Counted from the stretch's first letter, positions 23,659-39,439 are shown. The stretch is 64,000 bases of DNA from Acidimicrobiia bacterium (GCA_035462175.1 DATHUP010000051.1:4418-68417); one strand, 5' to 3'. Translations and numbers: made by a program. Notes: generated by a model not told the origin, from the sequence alone.

Positions 23659-24210
23659 ATGGGCCGGCCTGAACGCTCTCCAGCCGGAGCGAAGCGAAGC
23701 GTTTCGATCTCCGTGCTCGTCGGCCTGGTCTTGGTGCCCCTGAGCGCCTATGCCGCCACGATCCTGGTCGGCGACCGCACCCCGGCCGAATCGGAGGCGT
23801 CCATACCGGCGCCCGTGGCCACATCGGCGATTGTCACCGACTTCGCCACCCAGACCGCGAGCGCAGCCGACCTCGAAGCCGCCTGTGGCGATGCCGGGCT
23901 CGGCATGGTGTCTGCCGAGACAAGCGGCTCCATCGGCGGCATCGAGCAGGCGGCCCTGGACGCGCTGCGGGAGATCTGTGCCCAAGAAGGGATGCCCCTT
24001 CCCGGAAAGGCGGTGTCTCCACCCATCACCCAGACCGTGGTTCTCGCCGACAACGGGCCTGCCCCGAGGGTGGGGAGCGAGGTCGAGTGGGAGGTCGAAT
24101 ACGACGACGACTGGGACGACGACGACTGGGACGACGACGACTGGGACGACGACGACCGGGATGACGACGATCGGGATGACGACGATCGGGACGACGAGGA
24201 CGACGATTGA
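23659..24210 (+). CDS. membrane-anchored hypothetical protein with a polyacidic (DDDW)3(DDDR)3 C-terminal tail
   Basis: One N-terminal TM (VSISVLVGLVLVPLSAYAATILV), a roughly 110-aa unknown domain with 2 Cys, then YDDDWDDDDWDDDDWDDDDRDDDDRDDDDRDDEDDD. Confidence 0.6.
   Translation: MGRPERSPAGAKRSVSISVLVGLVLVPLSAYAATILVGDRTPAESEASIPAPVATSAIVTDFATQTASAADLEAACGDAGLGMVSAETSGSIGGIEQAALDALREICAQEGMPLPGKAVSPPITQTVVLADNGPAPRVGSEVEWEVEYDDDWDDDDWDDDDWDDDDRDDDDRDDDDRDDEDDD
24103..24207 (+). repeat. 15-nt tandem repeat, 7 units, in-frame within the CDS
   Basis: GACGACGACTGGGAC x3, then GACGACGACCGGGAT, GACGACGATCGGGAT, GACGACGATCGGGAC, and a degenerate GACGAGGACGACGAT. Confidence 0.9.
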
Positions 24211-24539
24211 GCCGTTTTCCCTTTCAGGTCGCGGCAGGGCTCCTCGTGCTGATCGCCGGGCTGGCAGTGGTCTACACCACCGTCGTCGCCCCGGAGCACG
24301 AGCAAGGCCCCGTCGTGCAGCGAGTGGTGTCCTCCTCGTCACCGACCCAGGTGGTCGAAATGCCCCCACCCACCCTGGAAGGAGTGGACCCGGTGGTGCA
24401 ACGCGTTCTGTTCGCGACCGGTAGGGCCGAGGCGTTCACCGCCGATGAGCTGACCCAGCTCCCGGCTGAGGTCGCCCGTGTCCTCGTGTTCTACGGGACA
24501 ACCATCACCGTCCCCATCGAGGCCGGAGCCGAGCCATGA
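24207..24539 (+). CDS. hypothetical single-TM protein
   Basis: TTG start overlaps the upstream stop (TTGA). One TM (VAAGLLVLIAGLAVVYTTVV) and an internal PVVQRV duplication. No domain recognised. Confidence 0.5.
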   Translation: MSRFPFQVAAGLLVLIAGLAVVYTTVVAPEHEQGPVVQRVVSSSSPTQVVEMPPPTLEGVDPVVQRVLFATGRAEAFTADELTQLPAEVARVLVFYGTTITVPIEAGAEP

Positions 24540-24874
24540 GCCGATTCGACGAGGGCCGGTGGAATCGGATCCTGATCTGGACCGGCGCAGCCCTGGCCTG
24601 GGGAACCGCCCTGATCGCAGCCCGGATAGACGAGAAGGCACAGCCAGAGCCGACCCAACCGTCGGAAGGCCAGATCGCCTCGGTCTTCCACCAATCGGCC
24701 CTGCCGGTGGCACCTGCCCAGGGCTTGGTGATACTGCGATTCACCCCCACGGAGACCCCCGAGCCTCGAGTGATCACGGTCGAGGTGGGGAGGGCCACAT
24801 CTCCGCAGTCACCCGCGCCGGCACCGGTGGTCACCCCACCGCCTGCACCCGAACCTTCGAGCAGTGGCTCATGA
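24536..24874 (+). CDS. hypothetical single-TM, Pro-rich protein
   Basis: ATGA overlap at both ends. One TM (ILIWTGAALAWGTALIAARI) and a P/T/E-rich tail. No domain recognised. Confidence 0.5.
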   Translation: MSRFDEGRWNRILIWTGAALAWGTALIAARIDEKAQPEPTQPSEGQIASVFHQSALPVAPAQGLVILRFTPTETPEPRVITVEVGRATSPQSPAPAPVVTPPPAPEPSSSGS

Positions 24875-25716
24875 TCCAGGTCACCTTCAATGCGATGGGT
24901 ACGGGGGTGGAGGCATGGTGCCCCGACGAGGCAGCGGCCGCCGGGCTGCGAGCGTGGTTCGAGGACGTCGAGGCGACGTGCAGCCGGTTTCGCCCTGATA
25001 GCGAATTGAGCCGGGTCAACCGGGCACCAGGCGCCGAAGTGGTCATCTCGCAGCGGTTCGCCGACGTGATGCGCGCTGCCGACAGGGCGCGAAGGCTGAC
25101 CGAGGGGCTCGTCGATGCCGGGGTGGGGGCGGCAGTGGCCGGTTGGGGGTACGACCGCAGCTTCGAGATGGTGCGGGGGCTGGACCAGGCCCCCTCGACC
25201 ATCCCGGCACCGCAGTGGGAGCTCCGTTCCCGGAATCTGCTCCGCCCTCCGCACACCCGCTTCGACCTGGGAGGCATCGCCAAGGGCTGGTCCTGTGATC
25301 GTGCCGTCGAGCTCGGGCTGGCCAGCGTCGTCTCCGCCGGCGGCGATATCAGAAGCAACGACCCGGAAACCACGGTTTCGGTTATCGATCCCTGGGGAGC
25401 GACCGCGGTTCGGATCCGGCTCGGAGAAGGGGGCCTGGCCACCAGCTCGACCGCGAGACGCCGATGGAAGGCGGGGACTCGCGAAGTCTCTCATGTGATC
25501 GATCCCAGGTCGATGGAGCCGGTCACCACGCCGATCCTGAGCGCGACTGTGGTCGCAGCATCGGCGGCGGATGCCGAGGCGGGGTCGAAAGCCGTGCTTC
25601 TCCATGGCGAGGACGGTCTGGCCTGGGCGGCGGAGCTCGACTGGATCGAGGCGGCGGTCGTCGTCTGGCACGACGGATCCGTCTATGCAACTCCCGGGAT
25701 CGAGGTGGCGGCGTGA
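24871..25716 (+). CDS. apbE: FAD:protein FMN transferase (ApbE family)
   Basis: Core ApbE sequence (SRFRPDSELSRVN, FDLGGIAKGW, GGDI, SGT-like region, HVIDPR). No signal peptide or lipobox at the N-terminus (MIQVTFNAMGT). Confidence 0.85.
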   Translation: MIQVTFNAMGTGVEAWCPDEAAAAGLRAWFEDVEATCSRFRPDSELSRVNRAPGAEVVISQRFADVMRAADRARRLTEGLVDAGVGAAVAGWGYDRSFEMVRGLDQAPSTIPAPQWELRSRNLLRPPHTRFDLGGIAKGWSCDRAVELGLASVVSAGGDIRSNDPETTVSVIDPWGATAVRIRLGEGGLATSSTARRRWKAGTREVSHVIDPRSMEPVTTPILSATVVAASAADAEAGSKAVLLHGEDGLAWAAELDWIEAAVVVWHDGSVYATPGIEVAA

Positions 25717-26279
25717 GTGTCGAATGGCTCGTCATCCGGGGATCAGGAGTGGCCGCTTTTGCCCTTCTCACCGCGGCCACGATCTGGGGTCTCCTGGTGA
25801 GCTCGAAGCTGCTGGGACGCCTGGTCAAGGCCAAGCCTCTCACCTGGTTCCACGAGTCGTTGGGTGTGGGGGCGTTGATCGCCACGATGGTCCACGTCGT
25901 GGTCCTCTCCGTCCACGACTTCCTCGACTTCAGCTGGGCCGAAATCCTGGTCCCGGGTGTCTCCGACTGGCGCCCTCTCGCGGTGGGGATGGGCATTGCC
26001 GCCTTCTACGGGATGGTGGTCGTGGCCGGCAGCTTCTACGTGAAGCGTTGGATAGGGCAGAAGCGGTGGCGCGCCATTCATTTCGCCTCCCTCGGCGTGT
26101 TCGTCTCGTCCCTGATCCACGGGATTTGGGCGGGAACCGACACCTCGAGCCCGATGATGATCGGTCTCTACCTGGGATCGGCCATCGTGGTGTTCAGCCT
26201 GGTCGCGCTTCGGATCACCGAGGACATGTCGAAGACTGCCGAGGCGGCGCGAGCGGCGAGCGAGAGGGCCGGCGTCTGA
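25713..26279 (+). CDS. ferric-reductase-like transmembrane (bis-heme b) protein
   Basis: GTG start overlaps the apbE stop (GTGA). Polytopic, with H-x13-H (FHESLGVGALIATMVH) and H-x12-H (IHFASLGVFVSSLIH) as in NOX/FRE/MsrQ-type domains. Confidence 0.75.
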   Translation: MSVEWLVIRGSGVAAFALLTAATIWGLLVSSKLLGRLVKAKPLTWFHESLGVGALIATMVHVVVLSVHDFLDFSWAEILVPGVSDWRPLAVGMGIAAFYGMVVVAGSFYVKRWIGQKRWRAIHFASLGVFVSSLIHGIWAGTDTSSPMMIGLYLGSAIVVFSLVALRITEDMSKTAEAARAASERAGV

Positions 26280-27136: not shown

Positions 27137-29446
27137 TCAGCGACTCCGCAGAGCCCGCCACACCCGCTCGGCGGTGAACGGGGTCTCGGTCAGCCAGATG
27201 CCGGTGGCGTCGTGGATGGCGTTGGCGATGGCGGGGATGGGGGCGTTGATCCCGATCTCGGCCACCGACTTGGCCCCCATCGGCCCGGTTGGCTCGAACG
27301 AATCGACCAGGATGGTCTCGATCCGGGGCAGGTCCTCGGGGCCGGGGATCTTGTAACGGGCGTAGTCCGTGGTCTTGAGCCTGCCCCAAGCGTCGAAGAC
27401 CATCTCCTCGAACAGGGCGTAGCCGATGCCGTTGGCCACCGCCCCCTCGACCTGGCCTTCCACCAATTTCGGGTTGATCGGAGTGCCGCAGTCGACGGCG
27501 GCGACGAAGCGGAGCACCTCCACGCGGCCGGTGTCCTCGTCGACGGCCACCTCGCAGAAAGCAGCTAGGAACGGGGGCGGCGAGAGCTCGGGGGTGAACG
27601 AGTGGATGGCTGCGATCTGCCGCTGCTCGGTGCCGTAGAGGGTCCGTATCCCGATTTCTGCGAGTGAGGCCGACGTCCCGTCCGCTGCGGTCACCCGCTC
27701 GTCCTCCAGGGTGAGTGACGCGGGCTCGACATCCAACATGTCGCCGGCCACCTCCAGGATCTGGGCACGCACGTCCTCGGCCGCCCTCGCCACCGCGGTT
27801 CCCGACACGTAGGTGGTCGAGCTGGCGTAGGCCCCGACGTCGAAGGGGGTGAGGTCGGTGTCCGATGAGATGACGACGATCTTGTCCAAGGGCACGGCGA
27901 GGACTTCGGCTGCGATCTGGCCGAGGATGGTGTCCGACCCTGTTCCGAGGTCGGTGGCGCCTACCGCCAGGTTGAACGAGCCGTCGTCGTTCATCTTGAT
28001 GGAGGCAGACCCCATGTCGATCAGGGGGATTCCTGAGCCCTGCATGTGAGTCGACATACCCACCCCGTGGACCCAGGATCCGTGGCGTTCCCGCTTGCCT
28101 CGCCTCTCGGTCCAGCCGATTCTCTCCGCGCCCTGCCGGATGCACTCGTCGAGGGCGCATGAGGTGATGGTCTGCTCCACTCCTTCCCGGCCCTCGCCCA
28201 GGGCGGCGAAGATGGGCGAGGTCTCCCCTTCGCGGATGTGATTGCGCATCCGCCACTCCAAGGCATCGATGCCGAGGTCGGCGGCGAGCCGGTCGACCGC
28301 CGTCTCCAGGGCGAAATAGCCCTGGGTGGCGCCATACCCCCGATAGGCGCCTGCCACCGGGAGGTTGGTGTAGACGACGTCCCCGGAGAACCTGACGTGG
28401 GGCGCCTTGTTGTACAGGGGCAGGGTCTTCGATCCCGCATTGGAGAGGACGGTGAGGCTGTGGGCCCCGTAGGCGCCTGTGTTGGAGAGGACCTCCATCT
28501 GGAGGGCATGGAGCCGGCCGTCTGCCTTGGCCCCGAGCTTGACCCGGACCCGCATCGGGTGCCTGGTCCGCGAGGAGACGAATTCCTGCTCCCGGCTGTA
28601 CAGCATCTGGGCCGGGCGCCCGGTCTGCAAGGTCACCCAGGCGGGCAGGTCCTCGATGAGCACCTCCTGTTTCACCCCGAAGCCGCCACCGATCCTGGGC
28701 TTGATCACCCTGATCCGGTGGATGGGGACGTCGAGCAGCATCCCGATGATGCGGCGCACGTGGAACGGGACCTGGGTGGAGGTCACGATGACGAGACGCC
28801 CGTTCTCGTCGAGATGGGTGGTGGCGATGTGAGGCTCGAGCGGGGCGTGCTGGCCGTATTGGGTCTCGGTGGTGACCTCGACCACCGCGTCCGATTCGGC
28901 GAAGCCTTGCTCGACGTCACCTGCGACGGCCACCACGTGGGCGGCGAGGTTCCTAGGTGCGTCCCAGACGTCGAGGGCGTCGTCCTCGTCGTGGATCACC
29001 GGCGCCCCCTCGGCGATGGCCTGGTCGATGGTCAGCACCGGCTCCAGCACCTCGTACTCGACCTCGATCGTCTCCAGTGCCCGTTGCGCTTCGAGCAGGG
29101 AGTCGGCGGCGACGGCGGCGACGCGGTCGCCCACCCAACGCACCTTTGTGTCGAACATCCGCGCGTCGTACGGCGAGGGTTCTGGGTATCCCTGGCCGGC
29201 GGTGGTGTATCGCTTCTCGGGGGTGTTCCGGTGGTCCAGGACCAGTGCCACCCCAGGCATCGCTTCGGCCCGTGTGGTGTCCATCGCCCTGATCCGGGCG
29301 TGAGCGTGAGGGCTGGTGAGCAGGGCGATGTGGAGCAGGTCGACGGGTTTGGCGAAGTCGTCGGCGAAGACCGGCCTCCCGGTGACCAGGCCGCGCCCGT
29401 CCACACGATGCAAGGAGATCCCTACGACGTCGTACTTGTCAGCCAT
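27137..29446 (-). CDS. xanthine dehydrogenase/aldehyde oxidase-family molybdopterin-binding large subunit
   Basis: 769 aa with IGGGFGVKQ, GAYRGYGATQG and C-terminal Moco-binding domains. Overlaps the 2Fe-2S subunit gene. Confidence 0.92.
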   Translation of the reverse strand: MADKYDVVGISLHRVDGRGLVTGRPVFADDFAKPVDLLHIALLTSPHAHARIRAMDTTRAEAMPGVALVLDHRNTPEKRYTTAGQGYPEPSPYDARMFDTKVRWVGDRVAAVAADSLLEAQRALETIEVEYEVLEPVLTIDQAIAEGAPVIHDEDDALDVWDAPRNLAAHVVAVAGDVEQGFAESDAVVEVTTETQYGQHAPLEPHIATTHLDENGRLVIVTSTQVPFHVRRIIGMLLDVPIHRIRVIKPRIGGGFGVKQEVLIEDLPAWVTLQTGRPAQMLYSREQEFVSSRTRHPMRVRVKLGAKADGRLHALQMEVLSNTGAYGAHSLTVLSNAGSKTLPLYNKAPHVRFSGDVVYTNLPVAGAYRGYGATQGYFALETAVDRLAADLGIDALEWRMRNHIREGETSPIFAALGEGREGVEQTITSCALDECIRQGAERIGWTERRGKRERHGSWVHGVGMSTHMQGSGIPLIDMGSASIKMNDDGSFNLAVGATDLGTGSDTILGQIAAEVLAVPLDKIVVISSDTDLTPFDVGAYASSTTYVSGTAVARAAEDVRAQILEVAGDMLDVEPASLTLEDERVTAADGTSASLAEIGIRTLYGTEQRQIAAIHSFTPELSPPPFLAAFCEVAVDEDTGRVEVLRFVAAVDCGTPINPKLVEGQVEGAVANGIGYALFEEMVFDAWGRLKTTDYARYKIPGPEDLPRIETILVDSFEPTGPMGAKSVAEIGINAPIPAIANAIHDATGIWLTETPFTAERVWRALRSR

Positions 29447-29918
29447 CGGCCTCGCCCTCCCTCATGATGGCGGCCGCCATCTCGATCGCATCGATCTGCT
29501 TGACATAGCCGGTGCAGCGACAGAGGTTGCCGGCGAGATAGGAACCGATCTCGTCACGGGTGGGCTCGGGGTTGCGGGCGAGGAGGTCGACGGCGGTGAG
29601 GATCATGGCGGGGATGCAGAACCCGCATTGAACGCCACCGGCGTCGAGCATCGTCTGCTGCAGCGGGTGATATGCCGCATCCTTTCCGTCCAGGCCGTCG
29701 ATCGTGGTGATCTCGCTGCCCTCGGCTTGTGCGGCGAACACCAGGCAAGAGGCGACGGCCCTCCCGTTGAGGAGCACGGCGCAGGCGCCGCAGTCGCCGT
29801 TGGCACAACCGTTCTTGACGCTGGTGTGACCGTTGGCACGGAGTGCCTCGAGCAAAGTGTCACCCGGCGCGAGCTCGAGGGGCTCACTCTTCCCGTTGAC
29901 GGTGAGGTCGACTCTCAT
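29439..29918 (-). CDS. (2Fe-2S)-binding small subunit of the molybdenum hydroxylase
   Basis: 159 aa with CANGDCGACAV and CGFCIPAM..CRCTGY cluster motifs. ATGA overlap with the FAD subunit gene. Confidence 0.92.
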   Translation of the reverse strand: MRVDLTVNGKSEPLELAPGDTLLEALRANGHTSVKNGCANGDCGACAVLLNGRAVASCLVFAAQAEGSEITTIDGLDGKDAAYHPLQQTMLDAGGVQCGFCIPAMILTAVDLLARNPEPTRDEIGSYLAGNLCRCTGYVKQIDAIEMAAAIMREGEADG

Positions 29919-30766
29919 CGGCTCAGCCTCTCCGCGACGGTGGTAAGGCACCGGGCGACCAGCACCTCGACCAGATGGCTGCGATATTCGGCCGAAGCCA
30001 CCCACCCCGTCCCGGTCGGAATCTCTTCGCCGGCGAGTCGGGAGGCGGTCTCGATGGCCGACGGGGACAGCCCATCGGACTTGACCGATGCCTCCGCCCG
30101 TGCCGCCCGTTGGGCGAGGTGTGGGGTCGCCCCACAGACGATCCGAACCTGGTCGACTCCTCCGGGGCCGAGATCCACCCGGCAGCATGCGTTGAGGATG
30201 GGGAAGTCGAAGGCGGTCCGGGCCTGTCGCTGGAAGGCCGCGGCCGAGCTCGCGGGGAGGGCGGGGAGCAGGACCTCGGTGAGGATGTGGGGCCGGGTGT
30301 TGTGTCCCTCGGAGAGGTAGCGGGACAGGGACATCGAGGTCTGGCCCCCATCCCGGTGGATGCGAACCTCGGCGTCGAGGGCGATGAGCACCGGCACCAC
30401 ATCGGAGAGCCGGCCTCTGGCGAGATGGCCGCCGATCGTGGCCGAGTTGCGAAGAAGCGGGCTGCCCACCTGCACCATCATCTCGGCGATGACTCCGCCG
30501 CCGTGGGCGACGAGCTGCTGATGCTCCAGGATCGCGGTCAGGGTTGCACCCGCGCCGATCTGGATCGATCCGTCGTCCTTGGCGGAGACGGCGGAGTCGA
30601 GGGCTTTCCTCAGGTCGACCAGTGTGGTCACCTCGGGTGGGGCGCTTATGGTGAGGTCGCTGCCACCGGAGAGGAGCCGGACGGTGGGGGCGCCGTCGGC
30701 GATGGATCGCCACGCCTCCTCGAGGGACTCGGGACGCAGATACTCGGTGATCCCGGGCCGGCTCAC
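29915..30766 (-). CDS. FAD-binding (CoxM/XdhB-like) medium subunit of the molybdenum hydroxylase
   Basis: FAD_binding_5-type sequence (LLSGGSDL.., ATIGGHLA) and a CO-dehydrogenase flavoprotein C-domain-like end. GTG start at 30766 overlaps the upstream stop (GTGA). Confidence 0.85.
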   Translation of the reverse strand: MSRPGITEYLRPESLEEAWRSIADGAPTVRLLSGGSDLTISAPPEVTTLVDLRKALDSAVSAKDDGSIQIGAGATLTAILEHQQLVAHGGGVIAEMMVQVGSPLLRNSATIGGHLARGRLSDVVPVLIALDAEVRIHRDGGQTSMSLSRYLSEGHNTRPHILTEVLLPALPASSAAAFQRQARTAFDFPILNACCRVDLGPGGVDQVRIVCGATPHLAQRAARAEASVKSDGLSPSAIETASRLAGEEIPTGTGWVASAEYRSHLVEVLVARCLTTVAERLSR

Positions 30767-32223
30767 GATGCGGCCGCCCTGTCGTTGAAGTCTTCGATGA
30801 GACGGTCGATCGGCCCGATCATGCCCTGGATCTCGGCCCAGTAGGTGGGGTCGTGCCACTGGCGATCCAGCTCGGCGACCTCCTTGCCCTGCTGTTCCAC
30901 CCAGGTGAAGTACTTGAGGTTGTGGATCCGGCGCCGGTCCCAGTGGCCCAGCTCCTCCACGTGCGCGGTCGACTCGCCGAGCAGCCAGCGCTGATGGGCG
31001 ACCGCGGCGTCGGTGGAGGTGAAGTCACCCAGCCGGTCCCGTTCCTCCACAAGCCGGCTCTGATACATGTCCATGGAGTCGGTGGCGATGGTGAGCACCA
31101 CGTCGTTGCTCCCCATCTCGAACCACTTGGCCAGCTTGATCGCCGAGAGCAGGTTGGCGATCGAGGAGATGCCCAGCTCGGGGAGCCGGGTCACCAGCGT
31201 CTCAGGCAAACCCCGGGAGACGAGGTAGTCGATGCCCGCCGGCTCGTTGAAGAGACGGATCAGGGCCATGGGCCCGGCATCGTCGATGCCGGTGACCACA
31301 TCGGTGTTGCGCACGTTGTGGATCCAGGGGACGTGCTTGTCGCCGATGCCCTCGATGCGGTGGCTGCCATAGCCGTTCCACATCAGCGTGGGGCACTGCA
31401 GGGCCTCGGAGGCGGCGACCTTCACCGTCGGGTAGTGCCGTCTGAGGAAGTCGGCCGAGGCGATGGTGCCCGCCGATCCCGTGGAGTAGGTAACTGCCGC
31501 CAGTCGGTCGCCGTCGCCGGCCACCGTCTCGAACACCTCGTGCATGGCGGGCCCGGTCACGGTGTAGTGCCACAGGTAGTTGCCGAATTCGTCGAATTGG
31601 TTGAAGACCACGATGTCCTCTCCCGAGGCGCGCAGCTCGGCGCACTTGTCGAAGATCTCCTTGACGTTGCTCTCCGAGCCCGGGGTCTTGATCACCTCTC
31701 CGGCGACGCTCTCCAGCCAGGCGAAGCGCTCGGCGCTCATCCCCTCGGGGAGGATGGCGATCGACTCGCAGGCGAGGAGGTTGGCGTCGTATGCCCCACC
31801 CCGGCAGTAGTTGCCGGTTGAGGGCCAGGCCGACTTCTGGGTGGTGGGGTCGAACTGGCCGGTGACGAGACGGGGAACAAGGCAGCCGAAGGCGGCGCCC
31901 ACCTTGTGGGCCCCGGTGGGGAACCATTTGCCGACCAGGGCCACGATCCTGGCGGCGACCCCGGTCAACTCCGAGGGGAACTCGATCCTGTTCACCTCAC
32001 CGAAGCGGCCACCCTTCTCCACGGGCTGGTTGTGCCAGGTGATCCGGAACAGGTTGAGCGGGTCGAGGTCCCAAAGCCCCACCGATTCGAGGCGACCCCC
32101 CACCTCAGCGGGGATGGTGCCCGGGTCGCGCATCTGGGCAAAGGTGGGGATGACGATGTCCCGTTCCCGTGCCCGCGAGATCGCGTGCTCGAGGCCGGCC
32201 TGGTCGATGGTGAGATCGATCAT
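30763..32223 (-). CDS. PLP-dependent enzyme, tryptophan-synthase-beta (fold type II) superfamily, 486 aa, function unknown
   Basis: PLP-lysine context FPTGAHKVGAAFG and glycine-rich loop STGSAGT. Long N- and C-terminal extensions relative to CysK. The real start, ATG 32223, overlaps the upstream stop (ATGA). The 879-aa ORF-track form is an artefact. Confidence 0.8.
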   Translation of the reverse strand: MIDLTIDQAGLEHAISRARERDIVIPTFAQMRDPGTIPAEVGGRLESVGLWDLDPLNLFRITWHNQPVEKGGRFGEVNRIEFPSELTGVAARIVALVGKWFPTGAHKVGAAFGCLVPRLVTGQFDPTTQKSAWPSTGNYCRGGAYDANLLACESIAILPEGMSAERFAWLESVAGEVIKTPGSESNVKEIFDKCAELRASGEDIVVFNQFDEFGNYLWHYTVTGPAMHEVFETVAGDGDRLAAVTYSTGSAGTIASADFLRRHYPTVKVAASEALQCPTLMWNGYGSHRIEGIGDKHVPWIHNVRNTDVVTGIDDAGPMALIRLFNEPAGIDYLVSRGLPETLVTRLPELGISSIANLLSAIKLAKWFEMGSNDVVLTIATDSMDMYQSRLVEERDRLGDFTSTDAAVAHQRWLLGESTAHVEELGHWDRRRIHNLKYFTWVEQQGKEVAELDRQWHDPTYWAEIQGMIGPIDRLIEDFNDRAAAS

Positions 32224-33470
32224 CCTGTCCACTCCTCCAATGCGGTGGCCACCGAGTCCAGGTCGGGGGCGACGTGGTGGGCCCGGATCCCGGCGGTGGA
32301 GACGGCCCGCATTGCCGCGGGGATGTCTTTGAGCCCGGTGCCGGTGGATATGGCGACGACCAGGTCGCCTGCCGAGATCACCCCGGTTTCCCTGGCCACC
32401 TCGACACCGGCCCAGGAGGCGGCGGCAGCAGGCTCGGGGAAGACCCCGGCCTGGGAGGCGACGGTGGGGATGGCGGCGAGGATTTCGTCGTCTGTGACGG
32501 TGACGAAGGCCCCGTCGCTGTTGACGATCGCCCGCATCGCCTTGATTCGGTCCCGGGGGAGACCGGCGGAGATGGAGTCGGCAACGGTCTCGGGGTGGAT
32601 CGGCGGCTTGGTGAGTACGTCTTCTCCGCTCTCCCATGCCTCGGCAAGGAAGGCGGAACCGGCGGCCTGCACCCCGATGATCCGAGGGATCCCTCCGATC
32701 CATCCCAGCTCGAGTAGGTCGGTGAAGCCCTTCCACAGGCTTCCCACGATGCAGCCGTCGCCCACCGAGACGAAGACCGCATCCGGCATGTGCCAGTCGA
32801 GCTGCCGGGCGATCTCGTGGGCGACCGTTTTCTTTCCCTCGGACATGTAGGGGTTGAACCCTGTGGTCCGGTTGTACCAGTCGAACTTCTCGGCGGAGCG
32901 GAGACAGAGCTCGACCGCCTCGTCGTAGCTGCCATCTACGAGCAGCACCTTCGCCCCATAGGCGAGGAGCTGCGCCACCTTTGCCTCCGGGGCGGCTGTG
33001 GGGACGAAGATGACGGTGGCTCGGCCCACCGAGGCGGCGACCCCGGCAAGCGCGGCAGCGGCGTTGCCGGTGGAGGCGGTGGTGATCACCCCTGCTTTTC
33101 GCTCGTCCGCCTTGACGATCGCCATCGCCGAGGCTCGGTCCTTGAGCGATCCGGTGGGTTGCACCCCTTCGTCCTTGATCCAGACCTCGGCCACCCCGGC
33201 CCGCTGCGCCAGTCGCGGCGACTGATAAAGGGGGGTGCCGCCGATGCGAAGCGGGGGCAGGGTGGCCCCCTCGCCGACGGGCAGTAGCGGTCGAAGCGCC
33301 CACATGTCGTCTCCGGCGATCGCCTCCCGGTCGAGAGTGGCGCCGATCCGCTCGTAGTCGTAGACCACGTCGAGGATGCCGTCGTCCCCGTGGTTTGGGC
33401 ACACGTAGTCCACCTGGTCGGGCCGGTAGGTCTTGGCACAGACCAGACAGGAGAGGTGGAGAACGTTCAT
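32220..33470 (-). CDS. threonine-synthase-like PLP enzyme with an N-terminal Cys-rich ribbon
   Basis: CLVCAKTY..CPNHG ribbon, PLP-lysine motif PTGSLKDRAS, and TASTGNAAAA. ATG 33470 overlaps the carbamate kinase stop (ATGA). Confidence 0.85.
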   Translation of the reverse strand: MNVLHLSCLVCAKTYRPDQVDYVCPNHGDDGILDVVYDYERIGATLDREAIAGDDMWALRPLLPVGEGATLPPLRIGGTPLYQSPRLAQRAGVAEVWIKDEGVQPTGSLKDRASAMAIVKADERKAGVITTASTGNAAAALAGVAASVGRATVIFVPTAAPEAKVAQLLAYGAKVLLVDGSYDEAVELCLRSAEKFDWYNRTTGFNPYMSEGKKTVAHEIARQLDWHMPDAVFVSVGDGCIVGSLWKGFTDLLELGWIGGIPRIIGVQAAGSAFLAEAWESGEDVLTKPPIHPETVADSISAGLPRDRIKAMRAIVNSDGAFVTVTDDEILAAIPTVASQAGVFPEPAAAASWAGVEVARETGVISAGDLVVAISTGTGLKDIPAAMRAVSTAGIRAHHVAPDLDSVATALEEWTG

Positions 33471-34411
33471 CGGTGGATCCTCGTGCCGGTCTCCTCGCGC
33501 ATTGCCCGCTCCAGATTCTGCGGGTTGGTGATGATGGCTTCCCTGCCCCCGGCCTCGAGGAAGTCGATGACGGCTTCGATCTTTGGTGCCATCGAGCCCT
33601 TGAGGAAGTGGGTGCCCTCGGCGAGGCGAGATTTGGCTTCCTCCAGGCTGAGCTCGGAGACCCACCGCTGCTCCGGCTTTCCGAAGTTCAGGGCCACCTG
33701 CTCCACCGAAGTGCTGATCAGCAGCAGATCGGCGTCAACCTCGTTGGCCAGCATCGCCGAGGCACGGTCCTTGTCGATGACGGCGGCCACCCCGTGGAGG
33801 GCTCCGGTGCCGTCCGCAACCACCGGGATCCCCCCGCCACCGGCGGCGATCACCACCAACCCGGCGTCGATCAGGGTCTTGATGGCATCGATTTCGACGA
33901 TCCGCTTCGGAATCGGCGAAGCCACCACCCGGCGCCAGCCACGGTTGGAGTCCTCTGCGATGTCCCACCCTTCCCCGTCCCGTCGTTTGATGGCGTCGGC
34001 TTCGCTGAAGAACGACCCGATCGGCTTCGACGGGGCGTCGAAGGCGGGATCGGCGGCATCGACCTCGACCTGGGTCACCACCGTGACCACTCCCTTGTGG
34101 ATCGACATCCGCATGAAGTCGTTGGTCAGGTTCTGCTGCAGGATGTAGCCGATGGCCCCCTGGGTGTCGGCGCCACACACGTCGAGGGGCACTTCGTGGA
34201 GCTCGTGGGAGGCCAGGTCGGAGCGGCGCAGGATGAAGCCGATCTGCGGGCCGTTGCCGTGGGTGATGACCACGTCCCAGCCATCGGCCACCAGCCCGGC
34301 GATGTGATGATCGGTCTCGGCGGCGGCCAGGTATTGGTCCTCGACGGTTTGATGCTGGGGGTCGGTGATCAGGCTGTTGCCGCCGATCGCCACCACAACT
34401 CGCTTGCTCAT
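33467..34411 (-). CDS. arcC: carbamate kinase
   Basis: 314 aa with VVAIGGNSL, THGNGPQIG and GGGGIPV motifs of the amino-acid-kinase-family carbamate kinases. Confidence 0.9.
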   Translation of the reverse strand: MSKRVVVAIGGNSLITDPQHQTVEDQYLAAAETDHHIAGLVADGWDVVITHGNGPQIGFILRRSDLASHELHEVPLDVCGADTQGAIGYILQQNLTNDFMRMSIHKGVVTVVTQVEVDAADPAFDAPSKPIGSFFSEADAIKRRDGEGWDIAEDSNRGWRRVVASPIPKRIVEIDAIKTLIDAGLVVIAAGGGGIPVVADGTGALHGVAAVIDKDRASAMLANEVDADLLLISTSVEQVALNFGKPEQRWVSELSLEEAKSRLAEGTHFLKGSMAPKIEAVIDFLEAGGREAIITNPQNLERAMREETGTRIHR

Positions 34412-34418
34412 CCCGGCA

Positions 34419-35393
34419 TCACATGGTCAAGGCCATGACGGCCTTCTGGACGTGGAGCCGGTTCTCCGCCTCGTCGAACACCCAACTGTTCGGGCCGTCG
34501 ATGACCTGGTCGGTGACCTCGATGCCACGATCGGCGGGTAGACAGTGCATGTACCCCACCGAGTCCGAGGCTCGGGCCAGCCGGGTCTCGTCGGCGATCC
34601 AGTCCTGGTACTTGGCGGCGATGTCGGCCGACTCCTCCTGGTCGGAGGTGGTGAGCATGCATCCCCACGACTTTGGGTAGACCACGTCGGCTCCGTCGAA
34701 GCCGGCGTCGAAGTCGTCGAGGATCTCCAGCGACCCGTTCCCTACCCTGGCGTTCTCCTCTGCCTGGGCAATGATCTCGTCCTGGAGAAGGAACTCAGGA
34801 GGATGGGTGAGCCGGACGTCCATCCCGAAGCGGGGAAGGAGGAGGATCAGGCTCTGCGGCACCGAAAGCGGCTTCTGATACGAGGAGGCATAGGCCCAGG
34901 AGATGTTGACGGTGAGACCGCGCGGGTCGCCTTTCTTCTCCACGATGGTGAGAAGGTCGGCGAGGGCCTGGAACGGGTGGTACCAGTCGCACTGCATGTT
35001 GAGCACCGGCACCCGCGAGGCCTCGGCCACATCCCGGATGTAGCGATTGCCCAGGTCCCAATCCACTTGTCTGATGGCGAGGCCGTCGTTGTAGCGGCCC
35101 AGGATCTCGCCGATCTCCGTCGCCGTGTCGCCGTGGGCGATCTGGGTCGTCTTCGACTCGATGAACTGGGCGTGCCCTCCGAGCTGGGCCATGCCCGCCT
35201 CGAAGCTGGCCCGGGTCCGGGTCGAGGAGAAGAAGAAGAGCATGGCCAGGACCTTGTCCCGGAGCAGGGCGTGCTCCTCCCCGAGGGCGCGGCGTCGCTT
35301 AAGGTCGAGGGCGATCTCGAGGACGGTGTCGATCTCGTCCTTGGTCCACTCCTGGGTGGTGATCATGTCCCGGCCGCGTAGATGCGTTTGCAT
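34419..35393 (-). CDS. YgeW-like / OTC-fold carbamoyltransferase of unknown second substrate
   Basis: STRTRASFE (carbamoyl-P), HPFQALADL, HCLPADRG. YPKSWG occupies the place of the OTCase SMG ornithine motif. 324 aa. Confidence 0.85.
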   Translation of the reverse strand: MQTHLRGRDMITTQEWTKDEIDTVLEIALDLKRRRALGEEHALLRDKVLAMLFFFSSTRTRASFEAGMAQLGGHAQFIESKTTQIAHGDTATEIGEILGRYNDGLAIRQVDWDLGNRYIRDVAEASRVPVLNMQCDWYHPFQALADLLTIVEKKGDPRGLTVNISWAYASSYQKPLSVPQSLILLLPRFGMDVRLTHPPEFLLQDEIIAQAEENARVGNGSLEILDDFDAGFDGADVVYPKSWGCMLTTSDQEESADIAAKYQDWIADETRLARASDSVGYMHCLPADRGIEVTDQVIDGPNSWVFDEAENRLHVQKAVMALTM

Positions 35394-35395
35394 GC

Positions 35396-36349
35396 CTACT
35401 CCACCCCTCCGAGGACCAGGGAGAGGAGGGCCATCCGCATCACCACGCCGTAGTAGGCCTCTTGCCAGTAGCGGGCGTGCCGGGTGCCGTCGACGTCCGG
35501 GGGCAGCTCGTCCATGCGGGGCAACGAGTGGAGGATGATCGCGCCCGGCTTGGCCGACTCGGAAAGCAACTCCCGGGTGACCCGATAGTTGTCCGGCGTG
35601 GTGGGCAGCTCATCGCCACGCTGGTCGACTCCCTTGGTGTAGTCGGCCTGGACCACCGGCTCCATGTAGATCACGTCGGCCTCTGAGATCACGTCCCGCA
35701 CGTGCTCGGCCTCCCGGATCGTCAGGTTCTGCTCGGCCAACTCCTTCTTGAAGTCGTCGGTGAGCGACATCTCGGGGGGAGCGATGGCGATCATCTCCGC
35801 ATCGAACTGGGTGAGGGCGTAGCCGATCGAATGCATCGTCCGCATCCGCATATCGCCGATGCAGAGGAAGGTGAGCCCGTCGACGGTGCCCAGCTCCCGC
35901 TGCACCGTGTACAGGTCGGTGAGCACCTGGGTGGGGTGCTCCCCCCAGCCGTCGCCGGCGTTGATCACCGGGACCGATGACCACTTTGCCGCCTCATGGG
36001 GGGCTCCCTGTTGGAAGTGGCGCATCACTATGACGTCGCCGTAGTACTCCAGCATGTGGACGGTGTCCTTGATCGACTCCTGGTAGAAGTCGCCGGCGCG
36101 GGTCATCTTGGCGTCGGTGAACCCGGTGACCTGGCCCCCGAGACGGATCATGGCCGCCTCGTGGGCGAGTCGGGTCCGGGTCGAGGGCTGATAGAAGGCT
36201 GTGACCAGGGTCTTTCCGGTGAGGAGGTCGGTGTTCCGTCTCTCCCGGGCGATCGGTCCGAGCTCGTCGGCCACGGAGAACACATGGTCGAACTCCGCTC
36301 TCTCGAACCCGTTCAGCGACAGGATGTCGCGACCTGAGAAGCTGCGCAT
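35396..36349 (-). CDS. PyrB-like carbamoyltransferase with a non-canonical second-substrate site
   Basis: STRTRLAHE, HPTQVLTDL, GDMRMRTMHS, LHSLPRMDEL. The ATCase RxQxER motif is replaced by ..YMEPVVQADY... Start taken at ATG 36349 (MRSFSGRDILSL, RBS AAAGGA). GTG 36400 is an alternative. Confidence 0.85.
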   Translation of the reverse strand: MRSFSGRDILSLNGFERAEFDHVFSVADELGPIARERRNTDLLTGKTLVTAFYQPSTRTRLAHEAAMIRLGGQVTGFTDAKMTRAGDFYQESIKDTVHMLEYYGDVIVMRHFQQGAPHEAAKWSSVPVINAGDGWGEHPTQVLTDLYTVQRELGTVDGLTFLCIGDMRMRTMHSIGYALTQFDAEMIAIAPPEMSLTDDFKKELAEQNLTIREAEHVRDVISEADVIYMEPVVQADYTKGVDQRGDELPTTPDNYRVTRELLSESAKPGAIILHSLPRMDELPPDVDGTRHARYWQEAYYGVVMRMALLSLVLGGVE

Positions 36350-36400
36350 GAGGTCCTTTCGGGGCTTGTGTCCAAAGTACCCGGGGCGGCGGATGGCCAC

Positions 36401-36434
36401 ATAGGGCCTATTGCCACTGGATCTAGGGACCTAT
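36401..36434. promoter_or_regulatory. two related palindromes in the divergent promoter region (candidate operator)
   Basis: ATAGGgCCTAT (36401-36411) and cTAGGgaCCTAt (36423-36434), with centres about 22 bp apart. They lie between the two divergent operons of the catabolic locus. Confidence 0.35.
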
Positions 36435-36539
36435 CCGCAGGGTGAGGGGCGGGCTATGTCACTCCGACAAGGGTCTTTCGTCTCTGGCCGGTGGAGAGGA
36501 CGCTTGTGACGATGGTGACAACCAGCAAGGGACTGTCTC

Positions 36540-37562
36540 TTGTCATCGATCACACCGGGCCTGGTCTGCGGGCACCATCATCTCTATTCGGCGCTGGCCC
36601 GGGGCATGCCCTCACCCCCGGCAACCCCGACCAGCTTCGGGGAGATCCTCGAGTTGGTCTGGTGGCGTCTCGACCTCGCCCTCGACCTGGAGATGATCCG
36701 ATGGTCTGCCATGTTGGGAGCTCTGGAGGCTTTGGAGCACGGGACCACCGGCATCGTCGATCACCATGAGAGCCCGAATGCCATCGAGGGGAGCCTCGAC
36801 GTCATAGCCGAGGCCTGCGCCGAGGTCGGGGTCCGGGTGGTGTGCGCATATGGGGTGACCGATCGTCACGGCCCCGAAGGAGCGCGCAGGGGGTTGGAGG
36901 AGAATCGGCGTTTCCTGACCGAGGGCGGGAGGGGGCTGGTCGGGATCCACGCCGCCTTCACCTGCAGCGACGACACCCTCCACACGGCCGCAGCGGTAGC
37001 TGCCGACCTGGGGGTGGGGGTCCATGTCCATGTCTGCGAAGGCCCGGAGGATGCCGGTGCTCCGGAACGGCTCCGTGACTTGGCCCGGTCCGACTGGCTG
37101 CTCGCCCACTGTGTCCACCTTCCCGAGGACCCGGGCCTGCCCGGCACCATCGCCCACAACCCTCGGTCCAATCTGAACAACGCCGTGGGTTACGCCCGGC
37201 CCACCAGGTTCGGCAACCCGGTGGTCCTGGGCTCGGATGGGATCGGGGCGGCCATGCTCGAGGAGTTCCAAATCGCCTATCTGTGCCACCGGGATGCAGA
37301 TGTGACCGCTTCCCCGGACACCGCCTGGAGTTGGCTGGAGAACGGCCGGGCGCTGATCCCAGAGACCGCCGACGACATCGTGACCTGGTCCTACGACCCG
37401 ATGGAAACCTGGCATGTCGCTTTCACCCCCGCCATTCGCCCGCTGCAGGTGGAGATCGGTGGGGAGGTTGTGCTCAAAGACGGGCTCGCGACCCGGGTCG
37501 ATCCGGTAGAGGTCCGGGCCAAAGCCGCAGAACAAGCCGCACGGCTGCACTCGAGATTGTGA
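36540..37562 (+). CDS. SsnA-like amidohydrolase (chlorohydrolase/aminohydrolase superfamily), N-terminally short
   Basis: ITPGLVCGHHHLYSALARGMP (HxH metal site) sits almost at the N-terminus. Later metal ligands are HAAF, HVHVCE, HCVH and GSDG. TTG start at 36540. See the finding on a possible upstream frame. Confidence 0.8.
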   Translation: MSSITPGLVCGHHHLYSALARGMPSPPATPTSFGEILELVWWRLDLALDLEMIRWSAMLGALEALEHGTTGIVDHHESPNAIEGSLDVIAEACAEVGVRVVCAYGVTDRHGPEGARRGLEENRRFLTEGGRGLVGIHAAFTCSDDTLHTAAAVAADLGVGVHVHVCEGPEDAGAPERLRDLARSDWLLAHCVHLPEDPGLPGTIAHNPRSNLNNAVGYARPTRFGNPVVLGSDGIGAAMLEEFQIAYLCHRDADVTASPDTAWSWLENGRALIPETADDIVTWSYDPMETWHVAFTPAIRPLQVEIGGEVVLKDGLATRVDPVEVRAKAAEQAARLHSRL

Positions 37563-37569
37563 GGCGACT

Positions 37570-39351
37570 ATGACCGACCGCACCCCACCACTCACCCCTT
37601 ATCCATTGCGAGTGCTCCTCGGTCGCGTCGCTCATGAGTGGGAGACGAGGCACCGCATCTTCGACCTCCCCATCGCCCGGATCTTCGACGTCTCGGAGGG
37701 CCCCGATCTCGGCGCCGAGTTCATGGGGCGCCCTGCGGCGACACCAATCGGGCCGGCGGCAGGCCCTCACACCCAGATGGCGCAGAACATCGTGCTCGCC
37801 TGGCTGGGCGGCGCCCGAATCATGGAGCTGAAGACGGTGCAGGTCCTCGACGAGCTGGAGATCTCCCGACCCTGCATCGACATGGAGACCGTGGGCTACA
37901 ACGTGGAATGGAGCCAGGAGCTCAAGATCCGCCAGTCCCTCGAGGAGTACGTGAAGGCCTGGATGATGATCGAGATCCTGCGCGGGTGGCCGGAGTTGGA
38001 GCCGCACCTCGGCGCCGACCCTGGCCCCCACATCTTCGACATCTCGGTCGGTTACGACCTTGCCGGGATCTCCTCCCCGGAGATCGCAGGGTTCATCGAA
38101 GGGCTCGAGGACGCCACCGAGGTCATCGATCGTCTCCGAGTCGAAATCCCCGAGCCCTTCACGGCCTGGCGGGGCCACACTTTCCCGACCCGTGTCGCAG
38201 ACACGGTCACCCTGTCCACCTTCCACGGCTGCCCTCCAGGCGAGATCGAATCGATCACCAAGCACCTGATGACCCGGCATGGGCTCGACGTGGTGGTCAA
38301 GCTGAACCCGACCCTGCTCGGGTTCGAAGGCGTGGGGCAGATCGTCCACGAGCTTCTCGGCTACGAAGAGGTCGGCCTGCGCAAGGAGGACTTCGACGCC
38401 GATCTCCAGTTCGATCGGGGAGTGGAGCTGATCGACGGGCTGGCTCGTTTCGCCGCCGCCGAGGGGCGCCGGTTCGGGGTCAAGCTGTCCAACACCCTGG
38501 TGGTCGACAACCATCGCGATCGTCTCCCCGACACCCCGATGTATCTCTCCGGTCAGCCCCTGCATGTGGTCACCACTACCCTGCTCGGCAAGCTCGACCA
38601 AGCCCTCCCCGGGCTGCTCGGGGTGAGCGGCAGGGAGGGCCCGGTCCAGGTCAGCTTCTCGGCGGGGCTGACCAAGGACAACCTGGCCTCGGTCGCCGCT
38701 CTCGGGTTGACCCCGATGACGGTGTGCTCGGATTTGCTCAAACCCGGTGGCTACGGGCGGATCAAGCCGATGCTGGAAGGGTTGCAGAGGACGATGGAGA
38801 AGGCAGGTTGCCCCGATCTCGCCGCCTGGCGCCGACAGGCCGGGCCCGAGGCGGTCGCCGGCTATGTCGAGGGGCTGCGTCGTCCCGAGCAGGTCGAGCA
38901 CTACAGCCGGGCCGGGACCAGCAAGATGCCCAGGTCTGTCGACAGCGTGCTCGAGCGGTGGGGCTGTGTTGCCTGCAACTTCTGCGTCACCGTCTGCCCC
39001 AACGACGCTTTCGTCCGCCTACCCACCCCGGAGGGGATGGAGGTGGAGGGTCGGCAGCAGTACTTCTGTCTCGCCGAGCTGTGCAACGAGTGCGGCAACT
39101 GCACCACCTTCTGCCCCGAGATCGGCGAGCCCTGGCTGGTCAAGCCCCGGCTGTTCCTCGACGCCGGGCGTTTCGCCGCCGAGCCGGCCTCGCGGCCGGG
39201 CTTCCTGATCGAGGCCTTCGGTGATCGGATCTCGGTTACCCCCAAACCCGGCTACGAGGCCGACGTTGTCCCGCTCACCGACATCCTCAACGCCGAGGAG
39301 GGACTACCCATCCGCCCCGCCGATCTGGTGACGGCCTCAACCGTCGGCTGA
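37570..39351 (+). CDS. YgfK N-terminal-like protein: dihydropyrimidine/dihydroorotate-dehydrogenase-like barrel plus 2x[4Fe-4S] domain
   Basis: 593 aa. IGPAAGPHTQMAQNIVLAWLGGARIMELKTVQ resembles YgfK/DPD-like TIM barrels. Two CxxCxxCxxxCP motifs are present (CVACNFCVTVCP, CNECGNCTTFCP). No GltD-like NAD(P)H/FAD C-terminal module. Confidence 0.8.
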   Translation: MTDRTPPLTPYPLRVLLGRVAHEWETRHRIFDLPIARIFDVSEGPDLGAEFMGRPAATPIGPAAGPHTQMAQNIVLAWLGGARIMELKTVQVLDELEISRPCIDMETVGYNVEWSQELKIRQSLEEYVKAWMMIEILRGWPELEPHLGADPGPHIFDISVGYDLAGISSPEIAGFIEGLEDATEVIDRLRVEIPEPFTAWRGHTFPTRVADTVTLSTFHGCPPGEIESITKHLMTRHGLDVVVKLNPTLLGFEGVGQIVHELLGYEEVGLRKEDFDADLQFDRGVELIDGLARFAAAEGRRFGVKLSNTLVVDNHRDRLPDTPMYLSGQPLHVVTTTLLGKLDQALPGLLGVSGREGPVQVSFSAGLTKDNLASVAALGLTPMTVCSDLLKPGGYGRIKPMLEGLQRTMEKAGCPDLAAWRRQAGPEAVAGYVEGLRRPEQVEHYSRAGTSKMPRSVDSVLERWGCVACNFCVTVCPNDAFVRLPTPEGMEVEGRQQYFCLAELCNECGNCTTFCPEIGEPWLVKPRLFLDAGRFAAEPASRPGFLIEAFGDRISVTPKPGYEADVVPLTDILNAEEGLPIRPADLVTASTVG

Positions 39352-39439
39352 ACTCGGCACCCCGACTAGCCATTGGCGGTTTGGCGCGGCAATAACTGGG
39401 GAATGACTAGAAGCAAGCAGCCCAGGAGGGACCCGCATC

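Follow-up and report, generated by a model that had tools for sequence, protein, structure and literature searches.

A ten-gene cassette in an Acidimicrobiia genome that probably encodes a variant of the reductive urate pathway

How a free-living bacterium might dismantle a purine ring with an enzyme set that overlaps only in part with the known one is the question raised by a ten-gene locus at positions 27137-39351 of a 64,000-nucleotide (nt) stretch of DNA from an Acidimicrobiia bacterium (GCA_035462175.1 DATHUP010000051.1:4418-68417), the whole of which is referred to here as the window. A first-pass annotation, made from the sequence alone, had placed the locus among the catabolic clusters for N-heterocycles (purines) of the ygeW/ssnA/ygfK family, and the likenesses of its products to XdhD, YgfK, SsnA, YgeW and YqeA bear this out. 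The accompanying remark that the region is incompletely understood is outdated, as the ygeW-ygfK region was reconstituted in 2025 in two studies (PMC12507026; bioRxiv 10.1101/2025.04.24.650524; commentary PMC12990295). Our analysis indicates that the degradation route specified by the cassette is probably a variant of the reductive urate (2,8-dioxopurine) pathway; it looks like a known kind of system in a previously undescribed form.

In the reductive urate (2,8-dioxopurine, or "yanthine") pathway shown in Escherichia coli and Clostridium, XdhD-YgfM (DOPDH) converts urate to 2,8-dioxopurine, after which YgfK reduces the ring; SsnA opens the ring to give mainly ureidomethylhydantoin, and HyuA opens the second ring to give 2,3-diureidopropionate (PMC12507026; 10.1101/2025.04.24.650524). 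YgeW then phosphorolyses one ureido group and YqeA turns the carbamoyl phosphate into ATP, YgeY hydrolyses the other ureido group, and YgeX converts 2,3-diaminopropionate to pyruvate and ammonia (PMC12507026; 10.1101/2025.04.24.650524). The two studies disagree on which of the ureido groups is the target of YgeW. The route sketched in the first-pass annotation, in which a ring is reduced and opened, two ureido groups are phosphorolysed with formation of ATP and pyridoxal phosphate (PLP) enzymes finish the remnant, closely matches this scheme (PMC12507026; 10.1101/2025.04.24.650524), except at its entry point: the heterocycle was thought to be hydroxylated by the molybdenum enzyme, and in the demonstrated pathway the XdhD-type enzyme reductively removes the 6-oxo group of urate.

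Compared with the E. coli and Clostridium clusters, the window has in common an XdhD-type molybdopterin (Mo) enzyme with a flavin adenine dinucleotide (FAD) subunit, a YgfK-type flavin mononucleotide (FMN)/Fe-S protein, an SsnA-like amidohydrolase, a YgeW-like carbamoyltransferase and a YqeA-type kinase, together with the same predicted logic of ring reduction, ring opening, ureido removal with a gain of ATP and a PLP-dependent finish. It differs in that the Mo enzyme is split into three subunits (the Fe-S domain is fused in E. coli XdhD), YgfK is without its FAD/NAD(P)H module, SsnA is shorter and HyuA, YgeY and YgeX are missing, and it adds a second carbamoyltransferase with the fold of aspartate carbamoyltransferase (ATCase) and a pair of PLP enzymes with the ThrC and CysK folds. 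No YgeV-type regulator, purine permease or YqeB/YqeC/MocA gene lies nearby, and the host belongs to a free-living, high-GC, soil-type Acidimicrobiia lineage rather than to the gut anaerobes. Pfam scans of large open reading frames (ORFs) and tblastn searches with the E. coli proteins found no homologue of HyuA, YgeY, YgeX, YqeB, YqeC, MocA or a GltD-like protein anywhere in the 64-kb window, which extends the earlier observation that ygeX, ygeY and hyuA equivalents are lacking; the sole match to YgeX is a weak one (23%) to the ThrC-like gene. Published variants of the pathway comprise UacX, UacY, an F420 reductase in Chloroflexota and SsnA in Actinomycetota, and we found no literature description of a truncated YgfK, an ATCase-like second carbamoyltransferase or a ThrC/CysK-type pair.

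Proposed ring reduction and ring opening

Window proteins were compared directly with the pathway proteins of E. coli K-12 and with related loci, each taken as a match with 10 kb on either side; presence and absence of genes were scored over 157 of them. The Mo subunit (769 amino acids (aa), 27137-29446, minus strand; Pfam Ald_Xan_dh_C, MoCoBD_1 and MoCoBD_2) is 43% identical to the Mo domain of E. coli XdhD and 35% identical to XdhA. It carries the insertion "(L/I)GEG" found only in XdhD, including the equivalent of XdhD Glu606, a residue with a role in orienting urate that has been linked to 2,8-dioxopurine formation (Li et al.). This insertion is invariant in eight orthologous Mo subunits and missing from the approximately 30%-identical Mo proteins that lie beside SsnA and YgfK in most other loci. 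Judged by these sequence features, the subunit is specifically of the XdhD type and not an XdhA-type xanthine dehydrogenase (XDH). Its score against TIGR03313, 704 against a cut-off of 1102, is low partly because the Fe-S domain is encoded by a separate gene. The product of that gene, a 2x[2Fe-2S] subunit (159 aa, 29439-29918, minus strand; Pfam Fer2 and Fer2_2), is 46% identical to XdhC and 37% identical to XdhD residues 1-150, and the FAD subunit (283 aa with a GTG start, 29915-30766, minus strand; Pfam FAD_binding_5 and CO_deh_flav_C), equivalent to YgfM/XdhB, is 25% identical to XdhB and 28% identical to YgfM over partial length. The three-subunit Mo/2Fe-2S/FAD enzyme of XdhD type would reduce C6 of urate to yield 2,8-dioxopurine.

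The pyrimidine ring would next be reduced by G10 (593 aa, 37570-39351, plus strand), a YgfK-type protein in which an FMN domain is joined to a 2x[4Fe-4S] ferredoxin domain. G10 matches positions 5-398 of the 1012 positions of TIGR03315 (412 bits, cut-off 835), is 37% identical to YgfK residues 5-406 and 39% identical to residues 898-990, and contains two CxxCxxCxxxC motifs at 466-476 and 505-515; YgfK residues ~407-897, the central GltD-like FAD/NAD(P)H module, are not represented. In YgfK, an FMN domain, Fe-S clusters and this module are combined in one protein of ~1030 aa. The protein had been taken for the N-terminal YgfK module only, which stands for residues 5-406 and falls short at the C-terminal 2x[4Fe-4S] domain, so that G10 is better described as YgfK minus its central module. 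A search of Protein Data Bank (PDB) sequences matched the ferredoxin domain alone. Among genomes, a scan with G10 as query returned more than 579 relatives, mostly in metagenome-assembled genomes (MAGs) of Acidimicrobiia and also in Myxococcota, Planctomycetota, KSB1, Sumerlaeota, Acidobacteriota and Alphaproteobacteria; 80 loci were kept, and nearly all of these matched over the whole 593-aa query, consistent with a widespread short form. Full-length YgfK (1113-1188 aa) occurs in some Acidimicrobiia beside a compact SsnA and the five-gene module for the lower pathway described below (L095, 13490-17056; L106, 12566-15907), so that within Acidimicrobiia the FAD/NAD(P)H module has been lost in a lineage-specific manner.

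Because G10 has no FAD/NAD(P)H module of its own, its electrons must come from a partner, which may be the FAD and Fe-S subunits of the same operon or a ferredoxin. E. coli PreA and PreT offer a structural parallel as a split dihydropyrimidine dehydrogenase, in which PreA consists of an FMN barrel with 2x[4Fe-4S] and the GltD-like partner is separate. G10 has the same layout without a GltD-like domain; it belongs, however, to the YgfK family and not to that of PreA, and no PreT/GltD-like partner gene is present in the cassette or the window. The Clostridioides difficile variant, with UacX for YgfK and UacY for YgeW/YqeA, resembles the cassette in showing that the reductase can do without its own FAD/NAD(P)H domain and that ureido-cleaving enzymes are interchangeable (PMC12507026). 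It differs in that its reductase is a PydA/UacX homologue rather than a truncated YgfK, and in that its cleavage of ureido groups is fully hydrolytic with no gain of ATP (PMC12507026), whereas in the cassette both cleavages are apparently phosphorolytic.

Hydrolytic ring opening would fall to a compact SsnA-type amidohydrolase (340 aa, 36540-37562, plus strand). It matches positions 57-354 of the 444 positions of the SsnA model with 241 bits against a cut-off of 444 (NF005540) and shares 35% identity with residues 54-355 of E. coli SsnA. The protein is 100 aa shorter than E. coli SsnA, from which it differs by the absence of the N-terminal ~55 residues and several loops, and retains the SsnA motifs HxH, HxH..E, AH, HNxRSN and LG(S/T)DG. 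An in-frame TGA stop at 36516-18 means that the reading frame cannot exceed 340 aa, and the Acidimicrobiia orthologues have the same compact length. With no HyuA at hand, both rings would be opened by SsnA, or the second would fall to an unlinked enzyme, in each case giving 2,3-diureidopropionate.

Proposed ureido cleavage and PLP-dependent finish

From this diureido compound onwards, two carbamoyltransferases and one carbamate kinase are predicted to act. G7 (324 aa, 34419-35393, minus strand; Pfam OTCace_N and OTCace) is a compact YgeW-like ("knotted"-type) carbamoyltransferase, 33% identical to YgeW, with the YgeW motifs PLSVPQ, YPKSW and QCDxxHPxQ and without the YgeW insertions. It lies under every NCBIfam cut-off (OTC 257 against 306, YgeW 175 against 453). 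Its original designation as YgeW-like is thus upheld by the shared motifs and weakened by the OTC and AOTC models, which outscore the YgeW model. G7 would phosphorolyse one ureido group, probably the 3-ureido group. The kinase (314 aa, 33467-34411, minus strand) is of YqeA/ArcC type, passing TIGR00746 (366.9 against a cut-off of 358.25) and NF009007 (391.5 against 266), and is 48% identical to E. coli YqeA.

The second carbamoyltransferase, G8 (317 aa, 35396-36349, minus strand), has the ATCase fold and passes TIGR00670 (253.8 against 236.95). The pass is on the score of the whole protein, and automatic annotation will therefore mislabel G8 as aspartate carbamoyltransferase. Across 27 orthologues, the carbamoyl-phosphate ligands S52, T53, R54, T55, R56, R105, H134 and Q137 are invariant, as are the alpha-carboxylate ligand R167 and L267/P268. 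Equally invariant are two replacements, K84 by Y and R229 by P within the motif YMEPVVQ(P/A)DYT, and position 231 is R or V. In E. coli ATCase (whose numbering is used here), K84, R229 and Q231 are the residues that we take to hold the beta-carboxylate of aspartate, as in the complex with N-(phosphonacetyl)-L-aspartate. This pattern of residues points to G8 as an enzyme of ATCase fold acting on an alpha-N-carbamoyl amino acid that lacks a distal carboxylate, and the predicted active site fits 2-ureido-3-amino(or ureido)propionate as substrate. With the alpha-carboxylate ligand kept and the beta-carboxylate ligands lost, it would suit N-carbamoyl-2,3-diaminopropionate and attack on the 2-ureido group. 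The active-site and motif comparisons for G7 and G8 agree with the view taken at first annotation that these carbamoyltransferases are not plain PyrB or ArgF orthologues.

G8 would accordingly phosphorolyse the second ureido group, a job that YgeY does in E. coli by hydrolysis, and the distribution of the two proteins fits such an exchange: among the 52 of 157 loci with a YgeW-type carbamoyltransferase, G8 occurs in 28, a YgeY homologue in 13 and both in none (Fisher p=4e-6, indicative only as the loci share phylogeny). A carbamate kinase gene goes with G8 in 27 of 30 loci; the kinase gene is missing between the carbamoyltransferases and the PLP pair in L023 and L029, which are otherwise complete. 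On this evidence G8 apparently replaces YgeY. The kinase would convert both carbamoyl phosphates, for up to 2 ATP per urate as against 1 in E. coli. This arrangement resembles the arginine deiminase pathway, in which a carbamoyltransferase, the catabolic OTC, phosphorolyses a ureido group and carbamate kinase then makes ATP at substrate level; the substrates and carbamoyltransferase subfamilies there are different, and in the cassette two carbamoyltransferases would feed one kinase.

The last step is assigned to two PLP enzymes. G5 (416 aa, 32220-33470, minus strand; Pfam PALP), a ThrC-fold enzyme with an N-terminal Zn-ribbon, passes TIGR00260 (180.6 against 167.1) and does not reach the cut-off of NF006050. 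Aligned to four solved ThrC structures, it keeps the PLP lysine K61 and shows the substitutions T88 to A, N154 to T, S155 to G, R160 to M and N188 to D (Thermus thermophilus numbering), at five positions that all four ThrCs retain. These five residues presumably form the phosphate pocket of ThrC for O-phosphohomoserine. "VGDG" and "STGNA" are invariant in 71 orthologues and the pocket substitutions are conserved in them. By its active-site sequence, G5 is thus an enzyme without the ThrC phosphate pocket and not a standard threonine synthase.

G4 (486 aa, 30763-32223, minus strand; Pfam PALP) has the CysK/CBS fold. It scores 81 bits against the cysK model, whose cut-off is 351, and exceeds the ~300-aa CysK architecture by helical extensions of ~85 aa at the N terminus and ~100 aa at the C terminus. 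The nearest PDB sequences are those of CysK (E~1e-15), and an AlphaFold2 model (pLDDT 80, pTM 0.87) matches structures of CBS, CysK, beta-cyanoalanine synthase and SbnA at 18-24% identity. Of the features of CysK/CBS enzymes, G4 has the PLP lysine (GAHKVG), the Asn loop (PSTGNY) and the EGIG motif, the last as part of EGIGDKHVPW, and conservation of all three extends over 98 orthologues. The family is compact, with 334 clusters at 50% identity (E<=1e-30) among 1.84 billion representatives and 64-70% identity across phyla, and its members carry only "cysteine synthase" or "PLP-dependent enzyme" as source annotations. A genome scan with G4 returned more than 594 relatives at 64-94% identity, in Acidimicrobiia, Chloroflexota, Polyangiaceae, Burkholderiaceae, Desulfobacterales and Terriglobia.

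G4 and G5 occur together in 71 of 99 loci, and the six loci that have a homologue of YgeX are all without G4. The pair also sits inside clusters that are otherwise canonical and without YgeX (L142, L140, L048 and L073), which hold YgeW at 58-67% identity, YgeY, SsnA, YgfK and sometimes HyuA: L142 has SsnA, YgeY, YgeW (67%) and YgfK, and L140 has HyuA, SsnA and YgeY, with G5 and G4 in the place of YgeX. From these contexts the two enzymes apparently act as a coupled pair that replaces YgeX, and would turn 2,3-diaminopropionate, or the mono-ureido form of it, into pyruvate and ammonia. The neighbourhood analysis of Li et al. took every PF00291 protein as "YgeX". A role for G4 as a substitute for HyuA was considered and rejected, since G4 co-occurs with HyuA homologues in L048, L062, L073 and L140. 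As a separate observation, two Burkholderiaceae MAGs (L133, 7953-13772; L152, 8638-13772) have a ThrC-like/CysK-like pair immediately upstream of cydAB, which encode cytochrome bd oxidase, and near multihaem cytochromes, with no purine genes nearby.

A discrete cassette and a widespread lower module

The ten genes, their order and their coordinates, as first annotated, were confirmed by ORF listing and by Pfam and NCBIfam scans of the window, and an independent gene call from ENA, on a contig encoding an identical 486-aa protein, agrees on the length of seven products (324/314/416/486/283/159/769 aa). Each of the four 4-nt overlaps of start and stop codons reported at that stage is exact in position: ATGA at 33467-70, 32220-23 and 29915-18, and GTGA at 30763-66, among them the junctions of the PLP-gene stop with the FAD-gene start and of the carbamate kinase stop with the ThrC-like start. 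The stop of the Fe-S gene and the start of the Mo gene overlap by 8 nt, and a gap of 2 nt separates the genes of the two carbamoyltransferases; all junctions among the eight minus-strand genes are overlapping or 2-8 nt, which counts as support for a single predicted transcriptional unit. The SsnA-like and YgfK-like genes, with a 7-nt spacer, diverge from the same intergenic region as the minus-strand operon. The high-GC actinobacterial background described earlier is likewise confirmed, with a uniform GC content of ~66% over the window and Acidimicrobiia MAGs as nearest relatives.

The divergent intergenic (promoter) region (36350-36539) contains the palindrome ATAGGGCCTAT at 36401-36411, which is invariant in an alignment of four orthologous intergenic regions and present as a single copy in the window, with 0 chance matches expected. 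Among 163 fetched loci it occurs only in L001, L083 and L084, which share this gene arrangement, and the intergenic DNA adjoining it has diverged. The palindrome is a candidate operator; the cassette itself has no regulator gene. An Rfam scan of 20-45 kb found no riboswitch in the divergent region, returning only a tRNA and a sub-threshold small RNA match, and promoter and terminator patterns were no more frequent than in shuffled sequence, a scan that is uninformative for a high-GC genome.

Nine or ten of the ten genes are present in seven distinct species-level genomes, with identical order in L001, L083 and L084. The order is rearranged in L019, L023 and L029, where the genes for the carbamoyltransferases, kinase, PLP pair, SsnA and YgfK run as a single co-directional string from which those for XDH diverge. 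At the nucleotide level, of two Acidimicrobiia MAGs, L083 (2865-15087; 92.5% identity) aligns with the window only over 27137-39361 and L084 (839-13029; 81% identity) only over 27137-39329, a span bounded by the stop codons of the Mo and YgfK-like genes, with unrelated flanks. Because DNA similarity is confined to the ten-gene block, the locus is a discrete 12.2-kb cassette, and it behaves as a transferable one; conservation as a unit, which the first-pass annotation had proposed to check by synteny, is borne out by both the seven genomes and the block-limited alignments. No integrase or transposase gene was found at the cassette borders in the window or in L083.

Within the cassette, the order G8-G7-carbamate kinase-G5-G4 forms a five-gene module of its own, conserved in Chloroflexota and Acidimicrobiia and often preceded by a GntR/UTRA regulator. 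What the first-pass annotation had missed is that the second carbamoyltransferase and the two PLP enzymes are apparently specific replacements of YgeY and YgeX and that these lower five genes are a widely distributed module. Other genes in related loci encode BMP-type ABC transporters, regulators of PucR type, ureidohydrolases of CN-hydrolase or M20 type and, now and then, glutamate dehydrogenase. In a commoner variant in Acidimicrobiia (L002-L030, most loci), the compact SsnA and the short YgfK go together with another Mo enzyme, one that has no XdhD insertion, and CN-hydrolase-type enzymes (one or two), a PucR-like regulator and an ABC transporter of BMP type are present too; this variant looks like a hydrolytic sister version whose entry substrate is possibly different. 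In a Chloroflexia MAG, a gene for SelB, the elongation factor for selenocysteine, lies near the lower module and a HyuA homologue (L131, 18390-20288); the gut pathway is selenium-dependent.

Around the cassette, the interval 23383-26279 (plus strand), just downstream of the Mo gene, encodes a small 4Fe-4S ferredoxin, two products without Pfam matches, an ApbE flavin transferase and a ferric-reductase-like membrane protein. A luciferase-like oxidoreductase gene at 17931-18959 (plus strand) is 8 kb from the cassette and not part of it; F420-dependent luciferase-family reductases stand in for YgfK in Chloroflexota (Li et al.). The ferredoxin, ApbE, ferric-reductase and luciferase-like genes were dropped as candidates for the electron donor or reductase, being not conserved with the cassette in L083 or L084. 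On the other side, ~3.5 kb past the cassette, a tRNA gene (42869-42941, minus strand; 74 bits) adjoins a DUF222/HNH endonuclease ORF (43282-44460, minus strand).

Substrate, alternatives and meaning

Several observations count against a urate pathway of this form. The evidence behind every step is homology to the enzymes of E. coli and Clostridium, active-site residues or the co-occurrence of genes, and the SsnA-like protein, the YgeW-like carbamoyltransferase and the Mo subunit are all under their NCBIfam equivalog cut-offs. A HyuA homologue is absent from the cassette, the window and 149 of 157 related loci, and the cassette has no transporter, regulator, selenium or Mo-cofactor accessory genes. 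Two PLP enzymes are present here and one suffices in E. coli; one locus (L065) holds a YgeX homologue plus a fragment of G4, an exception seen by tblastn only; and the G5-G4 pair also stands alone (L099) or beside cydAB (L133, L152), so that its substrate need not be purine-derived. The five-gene lower module, too, occurs in Chloroflexota and some Acidimicrobiia without SsnA or YgfK within 10 kb.

These points leave room for other readings of the same genes. The cassette might act on a heterocycle other than urate/2,8-dioxopurine, for instance a different purine, a purine in oxidised form such as 8-oxoguanine-derived bases, or a compound like a pyrimidine, which the Mo enzyme would prepare and YgfK and SsnA would reduce and open, passing a diureido or ureido amino acid to the lower module. 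We regard this as unlikely, although the identities of only 35-43% between SsnA, YgfK and the Mo subunit and their E. coli counterparts, with scores under equivalog cut-offs, and the missing HyuA would be compatible with it, as would the many related loci with BMP-type nucleoside/purine ABC transporters rather than UacT-type urate permeases. Most Acidimicrobiia loci, moreover, pair compact SsnA and short YgfK with the ~30%-identical Mo enzyme that lacks the XdhD insertion, and different Mo enzymes beside the same SsnA and YgfK imply that the entry substrate varies within the family. In this cassette, however, the Mo subunit is nearer to XdhD than to XdhA and has the Glu-containing insertion specific to XdhD, and the combination of SsnA, YgfK, XdhD, a YgeW-like protein and YqeA is so far known only from the urate pathway. 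It is improbable that two separate units have been fused here, a purine-ring module (XDH, SsnA and YgfK) and a five-gene module for a citrulline-, albizziin- or carbamoyl-aspartate-like ureido amino acid. Such a fusion would account for the lower module having its own GntR/UTRA regulator and conserved order in loci with no SsnA or YgfK within 10 kb, and for the G5-G4 pair in unrelated contexts. It sits poorly with the overlap of the PLP-gene stop and the FAD-subunit start, by which the module is translationally coupled to the XDH genes, with the co-directional placement of the lower module with SsnA and YgfK in L019, L023 and L029, and with inheritance of the entire 12.2 kb as one block; G4 and G5 also lie inside otherwise canonical YgeW/YgeY/SsnA/YgfK clusters in distant phyla, and the upstream module is expected to deliver exactly two ureido groups.

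A chance adjacency of housekeeping genes for PyrB, ArgF, ThrC, CysK and xanthine dehydrogenase is scarcely credible. Automatic annotation would suggest it, as G8 passes TIGR00670, G5 passes TIGR00260 and G4 is annotated as "cysteine synthase". The identification of G8 as a housekeeping PyrB was nonetheless rejected, since K84 and R229 of ATCase are replaced in 27 of 27 orthologues; G5 lacks the ThrC phosphate pocket, G4 stays far from the cysK cut-off (81 bits against 351), and the genes overlap, keep their order across phyla and have moved as a cassette. The reading that we prefer is therefore still a variant of the reductive urate pathway, which these comparisons make probable. A stronger form of it, which we put forward tentatively and consider possible rather than likely, is an all-phosphorolytic urate pathway in free-living Acidimicrobiia, with the same lower module in Chloroflexota, Polyangiaceae, Terriglobia and others, in which G8, with specificity for the 2-ureido group of (3-amino or 3-ureido)-2-ureidopropionate, would take the place of YgeY and double the yield of ATP, the PLP pair stands in for YgeX and one FAD/Fe-S module feeds both reductive steps.

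The active site of G8 gives independent access to the question of the ureido group that YgeW takes off first. Should G8 attack the alpha-N-carbamoyl group, its YgeW-type partner must attack the 3-ureido group, which would favour the cleavage order of Liu et al. over that of Li et al.; if true, the specificity of G8 would settle the dispute between the 2025 studies. The mutual exclusion of G8 and YgeY and the presence of the PLP pair in the place of YgeX likewise yield testable predictions, and the cassette brings to light three uncharacterised enzyme families that automatic annotation mislabels as PyrB, ThrC and CysK. An all-phosphorolytic variant yielding two ATP per urate may be of interest for engineering urate-degrading probiotics. 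Until now, accounts of the reductive urate pathway have ascribed it to anaerobes that live in the gut or otherwise in association with a host (10.1101/2025.04.24.650524; PMC12990295), and this cassette and its relatives suggest that a differently equipped urate pathway is common in environmental bacteria.

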